From the IMG/VR virus record IMGVR_UViG_2703718810_000005, positions 1-50,143 of that record: a stretch of 50,143 nucleotides of DNA; one strand, 5' to 3'. Under the pieces are notes generated by a model. That model did no database searches, was not told the origin of the DNA, and worked only from the letters and a program-made list of their open reading frames with translations. This DNA comes from a virus (Duplodnaviria; Heunggongvirae; Uroviricota; Caudoviricetes). Within the stretch, counting starts at the first letter, position 1; each line of letters begins with the position of its first letter. Positions 20,719 to 21,815 of the stretch are shown in pieces. The translations under genes were made by a program, and so were the position numbers.

Positions 20719-20843
20719 GGATATTTATCAGGATTTATAGCTCTCTTATTCCTGGATATGTCAGATATATAATCCGGTACTCACGATGAATATAATCAAC
20801 AGGCACCAGGACACACCCGGTAACAACAAATGAGATTTTATAA

Positions 20844-21164
20844 ATGAATAATAATGACAACAATTTACGCAAAGAGTTTTTGCAGATAATGAACGAAAAT
20901 GTTAAATCAGAATTAAAAGCGCTTATCCCGGATAACAGCGAGGCCACTCAGGCCATTCTCTCAGAGCCTTACGGCATGCTTTCAACAGAAACTCTGGATA
21001 TCATTATCACCACATTAACACCATTGATGCTTCAGCATCTGAAGCACAACATTAACAAATGGTTTAATGACGAACTCAGTCACCCGGGTTGTTCATGGGA
21101 TAAAAACTTTGCCTGTCTGCAAAAAAAACGGCTCTTCAATAAACTATCGCTTAAGTTCAGATAA
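20844..21164 (+). CDS. Hypothetical protein, AT-rich, inside lysis cassette
   Basis: 106 aa plus-strand ORF convergent with the 223 aa gene; local GC well below surrounding phage; no recognised domain. Confidence 0.4.
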   Translation: MNNNDNNLRKEFLQIMNENVKSELKALIPDNSEATQAILSEPYGMLSTETLDIIITTLTPLMLQHLKHNINKWFNDELSHPGCSWDKNFACLQKKRLFNKLSLKFR

Positions 21165-21812
21165 CCTCTCCCCAAACCGCCCTTTCAGATAAGTCAGTCC
21201 GGGATGAAACCAGTAAGCCGGCACTTTTTTAAAGGGCGGGTTGTCAAACTCACGAAGAAGAGCCTCCCGCACAACTACATCCTTGTCAGCACCACAGGCA
21301 AGTGCTTCAATCTCTGCCGCCAGCTGCAGATATCCCATGCAGCGACCAATGCGCTGCATCAGCCCCTGCTTTTTATTGTTCTTCATGTAATCAATGGCAA
21401 ATTCAATGAGCGCCTCACTGTGCTGGTGCGATGCTGGTGTTACTTTTCCATCTTCACTGATCGTGATATTCCAGTCATCGCTTGTCACAATAAAAGATGG
21501 CCGATTACCCCCCCATTCCTGGTCTTTATCCGGTGCAGACGCAATAAAATAACGTTTATTGCCTTCCTCTCCGGCACTTTTAACCGTAATGGAGTACTTT
21601 TCTGACAATGCGGTCGGTAAAAACTTTTCCTGCAAAATATTCGCAAAGATCCTGCGAGCAATTTTGATGCAATCATCGTAAAACGCCGCAAACTGCTCAT
21701 CGCGGCGTTTGTTTGCATCTTCAGAAGGCATCAGCGCCGACAGTTTTTTATTCAGTTCAGCAATTTCATTTTCCAGACGACTGAAGCGCTGATTCATTTC
21801 TTCATGGTTCAT
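21144..21812 (-). CDS. Hypothetical protein inserted between holin and endolysin
   Basis: 222-223 aa; start (GTG 21815 or ATG 21812) immediately follows holin stop with GGGGAGAG upstream, suggesting translational coupling; no recognised domain. Confidence 0.6.
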   Translation of the reverse strand: MNHEEMNQRFSRLENEIAELNKKLSALMPSEDANKRRDEQFAAFYDDCIKIARRIFANILQEKFLPTALSEKYSITVKSAGEEGNKRYFIASAPDKDQEWGGNRPSFIVTSDDWNITISEDGKVTPASHQHSEALIEFAIDYMKNNKKQGLMQRIGRCMGYLQLAAEIEALACGADKDVVVREALLREFDNPPFKKVPAYWFHPGLTYLKGRFGERLSELKR

Positions 21813-21815
21813 CAC

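Follow-up and report, generated by a model that had tools for sequence, protein, structure and literature searches.

A conserved convergent gene pair between holin and endolysin in a Shiga toxin prophage is a mobile accessory cassette of enterobacterial lambdoid late regions

A stretch of 50,143 nucleotides (nt) of viral DNA assigned to the Caudoviricetes (IMG/VR record IMGVR_UViG_2703718810_000005, positions 1 to 50,143; hereafter the window) belongs to a Shiga toxin (Stx) prophage in which an insert of 1097 nt separates the holin gene S from the endolysin gene R. The insert carries two convergent open reading frames (ORFs), ORF-A on the minus strand and ORF-B on the plus strand, which together form a conserved and mobile tail-to-tail accessory cassette of enterobacterial lambdoid late regions, standing outside the core lysis machinery. 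The cassette is regarded as mobile because the same pair recurs in Salmonella at another position of the late operon, and the fact that the two genes stay convergently paired in different genera, beside different holin genes and at different positions speaks for a functional link between ORF-A and ORF-B. As to the nature of this link, we tentatively favour, by analogy, a conflict module resembling Tab/anti-Tab, in which ORF-B would be an exclusion or defence protein expressed by the prophage and ORF-A its late-expressed partner.

Results

Two convergent genes at the holin-endolysin junction

ORF-A (positions 21144-21812, minus strand) encodes 222 amino acids (aa) from the ATG at 21812, or 223 aa from a GTG at 21815. 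Both codons directly follow the TAG stop of the holin gene (21818-21816), with the ATG 3 nt past it, and a GGAG lies 9-12 nt 5' of this ATG, within the last codons of the holin gene. ORF-B (20844-21164, plus strand, 106 aa) converges on ORF-A. The 3' ends of the two genes overlap by 21 nt (21144-21164), which leaves no room for a terminator between them, and a terminator scan found none between or after them. At the other end of ORF-B, an AT-rich spacer of 125 nt (20719-20843, plus strand) separates its start from the divergent start of the endolysin gene. A preliminary description of this DNA had reported two genes between holin and endolysin, the holin stop at 21816-21818, a ribosome-binding site proper to the holin-proximal gene, the convergence and an AT-rich stretch, and all of these coordinates were verified.

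The guanine plus cytosine (GC) content across the insert, which amounts to 0.325 at positions 20700-20899, 0.360 in the spacer, 0.383 in ORF-B and 0.464 in ORF-A, is lower than the 0.53-0.55 of the holin and endolysin genes. The insert is 100% identical in the Stx1a prophage of Escherichia coli S19-141 (NZ_CP075640), where RefSeq gives the products of both ORFs as hypothetical; the 9.2 kb around it, in which the stx1 genes lie, show 98.95% identity. A comparison with Rfam detected no non-coding RNA in the insert or in the leaders of ORF-B.

Recurrence of the pair in Salmonella

In five Salmonella contexts (L240, L253, L327, L331 and L333), a gene of the ORF-A family (hmmsearch E values of 1e-30 to 1e-34) stands tail-to-tail with a homologue of ORF-B (42-50% identity), with -4 to +19 nt between the two stops. 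In these contexts the pair sits upstream of the holin gene, which is a different one from that of the window, and follows either Q/hicAB or genes for a pertussis-like toxin. These contexts were reached through exact-protein look-ups, while profile scans of genome, viral and metagenome contigs returned E. coli-type loci only. Across all related loci, the distance from the ORF-A stop to the ORF-B stop ranges from -21 to +24 nt.

L333 (4953-6097) and L334 represent one Salmonella prophage, in which the pair comes directly after genes for a pertussis-like (ArtAB-type) toxin and precedes the holin gene. This order of toxin, pair and holin parallels that of the window, where stx, ORF-A/ORF-B and the lysis genes succeed one another.

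The junction between S and R as an accessory slot

S directly adjoins R in most of the 370 phage records matching the flanks, as the preliminary description had assumed, with a gap of 4 nt in VT2-Sakai. At least 80% of the region is covered in just two of these records, both Stx2_12E129, which carry the same two-gene module, here with a short ORF-A form 85% identical to that of the window and an ORF-B allele 54% identical. The gap is also filled by a 329-aa gene in Stx2_95 and by a 161-aa gene in Stx2_499. In Stx2 phage 86 (NC_008464, orf5/orf6), the order of holin, ORF-A-family gene, convergent ORF-B-family gene and endolysin is that of the window; unlike the window, this phage carries the long, DUF1327-headed form of ORF-A, and its ORF-B allele is 49% identical. 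The genes of phage 86 and Stx2_12E129 are annotated as hypothetical or as YdfR family.

With an ORF-A profile, a homologue was found to start right after the S21-type holin gene, upstream of R, in 80 of 80 IMG/VR loci. Of 5426 complete E. coli genomes, 1037 contain detectable DNA of the ORF-A C-terminal domain and 27 the entire module. Among 40 spread-sampled E. coli matches, 21 have no annotated feature beneath them, and the single one inspected is a broken gene of the YdfR family. In the Qin prophage of E. coli K-12 (essQ-ydfR-rrrQ), ydfR occupies the same slot, between class II holin and lysozyme. In S21-type cassettes, accessory genes are regularly accommodated between S and R, and the ORF-A family is the habitual and often decaying occupant of this slot.

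It follows from this regular occupation, seen in all 80 viral loci, in about a thousand of the complete genomes, in Qin and in phage 86, that the insert is no exceptional piece of foreign DNA in a junction that is normally closed, as had been proposed. What does hold of that proposal is that both genes are accessory, variable among close Stx phages and distinct in their GC content. It had also been stated that the view of an acquired cargo would fall if both genes were conserved as part of the lysis cassette with a known lysis-accessory function; conservation beside the lysis cassette was found, and a known function of this kind was not.

The endolysin begins with MNAKIKYGLS in filled cassettes versus MSRKLRYGLS in R of VT2-Sakai, and the 5' leaders differ too, which places a mosaic boundary inside R. 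These differences in the first codons and leader of R suggest, at the level of sequence, that filled and empty cassettes are alleles swapped by recombination within S and R, and not the result of a recent clean insertion. The endolysin leader in filled-slot cassettes has no Shine-Dalgarno sequence (…CTGATAAATATCCATG; window 20680-20760 compared with L004 2090-2160), and the translation of R may depend on upstream events. The convergent position is also taken by unrelated small genes, of 86 aa in PhiR12 and of 116 aa in L026. In another locus (L013, about 3966-4800), an IS1-like insertion sequence (IS) with InsA/InsB-like ORFs lies between ORF-B and the endolysin gene.

Selection on both genes

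The pairwise ratio of nonsynonymous to synonymous substitution rates (dN/dS) ranges from 0.22 to 0.50 for ORF-A, with the exception of one near-identical pair (15 differences), and from 0.12 to 0.49 for ORF-B, where most values fall between 0.12 and 0.33. Judged by these ratios, ORF-A and ORF-B are real genes under purifying selection. That they are chance or decaying frames devoid of function, in line with their lack of known domains and with the many pseudogenes among their relatives, is effectively refuted by dN/dS values well below 1 over saturated synonymous divergence; moreover, the E. coli and Salmonella proteins share conserved motifs, and the fold prediction for ORF-B is confident.

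Modular architecture of the ORF-A family

ORF-A is composed of an N-terminal coiled coil (approximately residues 3-63; …RLENEIAELNKKLS… in the family), a variable middle part and a conserved C-terminal domain of about 115 aa, the alignment of which contains 32 invariant columns and the motif GRCMGYLQxAAEIEA ... DNPPFKKxPxxWxxPGLxYLKGR. It matches phrog_1085, a family of unknown function, at E=9.6e-99 over profile positions 117-296. No Pfam family was recovered by hmmscan at E<=0.1, and searches of NCBIfam and PADLOC gave sub-threshold noise only; among the defence hidden Markov models (HMMs) of PADLOC-DB v2, a single marginal match was obtained for ORF-A (JetA, E=0.05, in the coiled coil) and none for ORF-B.

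A search of 5.8 billion proteins yielded 176 relatives of ORF-A, all from E. coli or Shigella. Many of these measure 268-333 aa, bear PF07041 (DUF1327) at the N-terminus and go under the name "YdfR family protein" at NCBI (Prokaryotic Genome Annotation Pipeline, PGAP). ORF-A aligns with the PF07041-bearing proteins at E values of 1e-61 to 1e-76, with 56-84% identity over 66-95% of its length, and is clearly homologous to their coiled coil and C-terminal domain. These alignments show ORF-A to be a head-less counterpart of the long YdfR-family proteins, in which the coiled coil and the C-terminal domain are kept and DUF1327 is gone. No DUF1327-like sequence occurs anywhere in the window, and BLASTP of ORF-A against K-12 YdfR, which consists of the head only, gave no alignment. 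Other members of the family combine the same coiled coil with alternative C-terminal tails (Stx2_499 and Stx1_499) or with no tail (PhiR12), and three loci (L025, L026 and L072) have a short ORF-A with a separate, stand-alone DUF1327 gene directly behind it. Because DUF1327 is fused in the long forms and adjoins as a separate gene in these three loci, the gene arrangements suggest that the head and the tail of the family work together.

An exhaustive HMM search of 1.84 billion representative proteins gave 44 matches to ORF-A, comprising the same family, its Salmonella relatives and a few spurious repeat proteins (Big_12 and SRCR). The distant relatives share the architecture and keep the C-terminal motif, and they come from Salmonella enterica wherever the source names an organism. 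Profile searches of both proteins against PDB sequences gave no significant match. In a metagenomic locus (L242, 963-1532), an ORF-A-family gene is followed by a co-directional gene for a 189-aa protein in place of ORF-B, and then by the holin gene; this protein has hydrophobic stretches resembling membrane segments and no Pfam match.

Neither ORF-A nor ORF-B shows the transmembrane segment, signal sequence or lipobox of a membrane lysis protein. The maximum Kyte-Doolittle value over 19 residues is 0.92 in ORF-A, which therefore lacks a hydrophobic segment and is predicted to be cytoplasmic, and 1.23 in ORF-B.

The YdfR protein (DUF1327) of E. coli K-12 emerged from an envelope-integrity screen, is a binding partner of the N-terminal, catalytic half of RNase E and is recovered together with RNA on purification (PMC13232886); these are the only experimental data on the family. 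The main alternative, only slightly less probable than the conflict module, gives the primary function to ORF-A, as a late, holin-coupled cytoplasmic accessory which would tune lysis timing or host RNA metabolism. In the lysogen, ORF-B would then serve as an optional brake: by inhibiting at the protein level, by antisense transcription through ORF-A and S, or by both, it would keep leaky late expression harmless. The family always adjoins the lysis cassette, is coupled to the holin stop codon and often occurs without ORF-B. The association with DUF1327, fused in the long forms or adjoining in L025, L026 and L072, and the binding of RNase E by K-12 YdfR point the same way, the frequent pseudogenes in resident prophages fit a gene useful to the active phage only, and convergent genes without a terminator necessarily yield antisense RNA. 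Against this, the window protein lacks DUF1327, the RNase E-binding part in K-12 YdfR, and has no similarity to K-12 YdfR, which makes the link to RNase E indirect; it has no transmembrane segment and no similarity to known antiholins; most Stx phages lyse without ORF-A; and a simple brake offers no obvious reason for the alleles of ORF-B to have diverged so deeply. Small soluble proteins encoded right after the holin gene are known as holin-adjacent lysis regulators, e.g. P1 LydB and T4 RIII, and ORF-A is likewise soluble and directly follows the holin gene; no sequence or fold similarity to such regulators emerged from the searches, none of which was aimed at these proteins.

ORF-B, an allelic cassette with its own leader

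ORF-B matches phrog_1853 (E=2.2e-44), again a family of unknown function, and its family comprises 54 clusters limited to Escherichia and Salmonella, none of which has a Pfam domain. Searches of Pfam, NCBIfam and PADLOC gave sub-threshold noise at most. A small soluble helical protein is predicted, since the AlphaFold2 model consists of five helices with a mean predicted local distance difference test (pLDDT) of 81.9, and a fold comparison of this model returned no informative match. In keeping with the earlier statement that neither protein shows a recognisable motif, neither matches a characterised family in Pfam, NCBIfam, PADLOC or PHROG.

In E. coli loci, ORF-B is always located between an ORF-A-family gene and R, convergent with ORF-A. 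Copies of ORF-A that are 92% identical carry ORF-B alleles just 47% identical between conserved flanks, and in such comparisons ORF-B behaves as a hypervariable allelic cassette. Divergence of this kind is typical of specificity determinants in conflict systems.

The spacer sequence adjoining R is conserved in all ORF-B alleles. It contains perfect TATAAT hexamers at 20768-20773 and 20791-20796, with poor -35 matches (2/6), and is a putative promoter and leader of ORF-B as well as the leader of the endolysin gene on the opposite strand. In related loci, a hairpin of 8 bp (TTCAGCC-CGYCAGYG-loop-CACTGGCG-TTT) lies about 45-90 nt upstream of the ORF-B start, in L302, L304, L320, L325 and L001 of E. 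coli and in L240, L253, L327, L331 and L333 of Salmonella. Its nucleotide sequence is conserved between the two genera, although the ORF-B proteins are only about 45-50% identical; its changes are limited to G-U pairs, with no compensatory pairs, and it has no Rfam match. The hairpin may be a 5' stabiliser or an attenuator of the ORF-B mRNA. The window spacer (20719-20843) does not contain it, as the ORF-B allele of the window has another leader. In L008 and L074, a window-type ORF-B is frameshifted near codon 95, so that its C-terminus changes to …KNGSSINYRLSSDNLSPNRPFR and the product reaches 115 aa; the alternative frame is open in the window too, as a 41-aa ORF (21067-21192).

Occurrence of each gene alone

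A scan seeded with ORF-B gave no ORF-A match at most loci, but these loci reduce to a few arrangements. ORF-B is found without a detectable ORF-A in four arrangements, and the two inspected, an O157:H7 prophage and contig L249, are decayed loci. The first is a clonal, IS-riddled O157:H7 prophage, present at an identity of at least 99% in 626 complete genomes, mostly O157:H7. L326 (E. coli O157:H7 EC4115, 1185560-1193246) is a defective prophage riddled with IS1203/IS66, in which ORF-A is gone and an intact ORF-B allele (63% identical) lies between a truncated holin gene and the lysozyme gene. In the second, L249, a remnant of ORF-A is still visible. The remaining arrangements are those of L250-252 and of L303, whose stored locus ends about 100 nt past ORF-B. 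Independent retention of ORF-B, considered on the basis of about 50 ORF-B-only IMG/VR loci, was dropped because most of these loci are one clonal IS-riddled O157:H7 prophage.

That each gene is somewhere found without the other, that their alleles are shuffled relative to one another and that the slot has varied occupants (the 86-aa gene of PhiR12, the 116-aa gene of L026, the tails of Stx2_499 and Stx1_499, the IS1-like element of L013) would all fit two unrelated morons with independent functions, brought together only by a recombination hot-spot between S and R. This is unlikely, given that both families stand tail-to-tail again in the five Salmonella contexts, at another position and beside another holin gene, and that the inspected loci with ORF-B and no intact ORF-A are decayed.

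Flanking lysis genes and neighbourhood

On the minus strand, from high to low coordinates, the order is esterase, DUF1378/DUF826 ORFs, holin, ORF-A, R, antirepressor-like gene and Rz. The holin gene S (21816-22031) encodes a class II, S21-type holin, with a 71-aa form according to RefSeq; it matches PF04971 (P21 holin S, E=1.7e-32) and is annotated in NZ_CP075640 as 'class II holin family protein', and an in-frame ATG further upstream could lengthen its ORF to 22106. The endolysin gene R (20185-20718) encodes a PF00959 lysozyme (E=4.4e-24) with an N-terminus resembling the signal-arrest-release (SAR) type (MNAKIKYGLSAAVLALIAAGASA). Rz (PF03245) lies at 18749-19285. A nanS-p-type esterase gene is located at 22708-24672, and two small DUF1378/DUF826 ORFs stand between it and the holin gene, all on the minus strand.

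The lysis cassette has a second break, between endolysin and Rz, where an antirepressor-like gene (19338-19910, minus strand; P22_AR_N, E=7e-46) is found with an ORF of about 49 aa just below it; this interruption has the same arrangement in VT2-Sakai and phage 86. Upstream of the esterase gene, positions 24885-25000 of the minus strand match the STnc100 small RNA family of Rfam (110 bits, E=3e-24; the alignment is cut at the search boundary), and this family is present also in L304 and L253.

Discussion

In its layout the pair resembles a prophage conflict module, which the preliminary description had suggested as a possibility: a holin-coupled gene lies on the late strand, and the opposite strand carries a gene preceded by an upstream region of its own. 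ORF-A is the gene on the Q-dependent late strand, and ORF-B, behind its AT-rich spacer, is the one on the opposite strand. In the lysogen, ORF-B alone would be transcribed from its own putative promoter, antisense to ORF-A and holin. After induction, antiterminated Q-dependent late transcription would cross ORF-B, interfere with it and yield ORF-A along with the lysis proteins, and the two products would therefore be temporally exclusive. ORF-A would neutralise ORF-B or take over from it, which would leave the lytic cycle of the phage itself unharmed. Such a module predicts that ORF-B without ORF-A, i.e. after loss of the late partner, would be found mainly in dead prophages. It is conceivable, if rather doubtful, that the pair constitutes a new two-component phage-conflict system of Shiga-toxin and Salmonella toxin-converting prophages, in which ORF-B blocks superinfecting or co-resident lambdoid phages and ORF-A lifts or retargets the block for the burst of its own phage, and the state of which, given its location in the lysis cassette directly downstream of stx, may influence the timing of lysis and hence of toxin release.

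Several observations weigh against a conflict module. The ORF-A family is far commoner than ORF-B and often occurs alone, which makes a function of its own probable. The dependence of ORF-B on ORF-A rests on few independent events, the inspected cases amounting to one clonal lineage and one contig. The alleles of ORF-A and ORF-B do not co-vary, which is unexpected for a specific pair of binder and antidote, and a consensus scan found no sigma-70 promoter upstream of ORF-B. Furthermore, the AlphaFold2 model of ORF-A, built from an alignment of 30 sequences, is unreliable (pLDDT 50.8), and the outcome of its Foldseek comparison is meaningless. The HMM and structure searches recommended at the outset thus delivered a confident helical model for ORF-B, a poor one for ORF-A and no function from HMM, fold or defence libraries.

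A published parallel in arrangement comes from the Pseudomonas aeruginosa phage JBD26. Its defence gene tab, which has a promoter to itself, sits between two late genes and is encoded on the minus strand; the antidote gene anti-tab runs in the late direction and overlaps the late gene upstream of it by 1 bp (PMC10884400). In both cases a pair is wedged between normally adjoining late genes, with one gene on the opposite strand, and ORF-A likewise abuts the upstream late gene in all 80 loci. In contrast, the JBD26 pair lies at the terminase genes and ORF-A/ORF-B at the lysis genes, and ORF-A often occurs without ORF-B. A tblastn search of both proteins against 50,697 phage records matched only E. 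coli/Stx phages, the presence of JBD26 in this collection not being confirmed.

Comparison may also be drawn with the lambdoid morons bor, lom and HK97 gp15. Morons are reportedly defined (Juhala et al. 2000) as extra DNA variable among relatives, of deviant composition and with its own promoter and terminator. The insert is variable extra DNA of deviant composition and, like these morons, it is present or absent among relatives, has a lower GC content and is located inside a late operon. Unlike them, ORF-B has no recognisable combination of promoter and terminator, and ORF-A, which is coupled to the holin gene, lacks separate signals.

Two small adjoining genes, one of them dispensable without the other and placed near hicAB in Salmonella loci, also call to mind a toxin-antitoxin or addiction module which stabilises the prophage. 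This is very improbable: type II modules are co-directional, co-transcribed and always found together, whereas ORF-A and ORF-B are convergent and form no operon, ORF-A is part of the late transcript and has no promoter to itself, each gene is found without the other, and neither matches a toxin-antitoxin family in Pfam or PADLOC.

The accessory slot and the ORF-A gene family were already known, and the ORF-B family is undescribed. Among described genes, those of the YdfR/DUF1327 family and orf5/orf6 of Stx2 phage 86 come nearest to the pair. In the searchable literature, neither the genes lying between S and R in Stx phages nor the RefSeq accessions were found to be the subject of any paper, and the convergent arrangement of the two families, like its persistence in Salmonella, seems undescribed there.

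Conclusions

The outcome of this analysis is threefold: a modular late protein family with an optional DUF1327 head, a coiled coil and exchangeable tails; a new family of small helical proteins; and a conserved convergent pairing of the two in toxin-converting prophages of E. coli and Salmonella. The recent finding on K-12 YdfR and RNase E is also placed in context, as DUF1327 is one exchangeable head of the ORF-A family. If the pair is not a device of defence and antidote or of lysis control, it adds one more pair of conserved hypothetical prophage genes; if it is, it would represent a new system in a medically important group of phages. Since the release of Stx depends on late-operon expression and lysis, a gene in the lysis cassette could affect toxin output, as well as the competition among the many lambdoid prophages of Shiga-toxin-producing E. 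coli.

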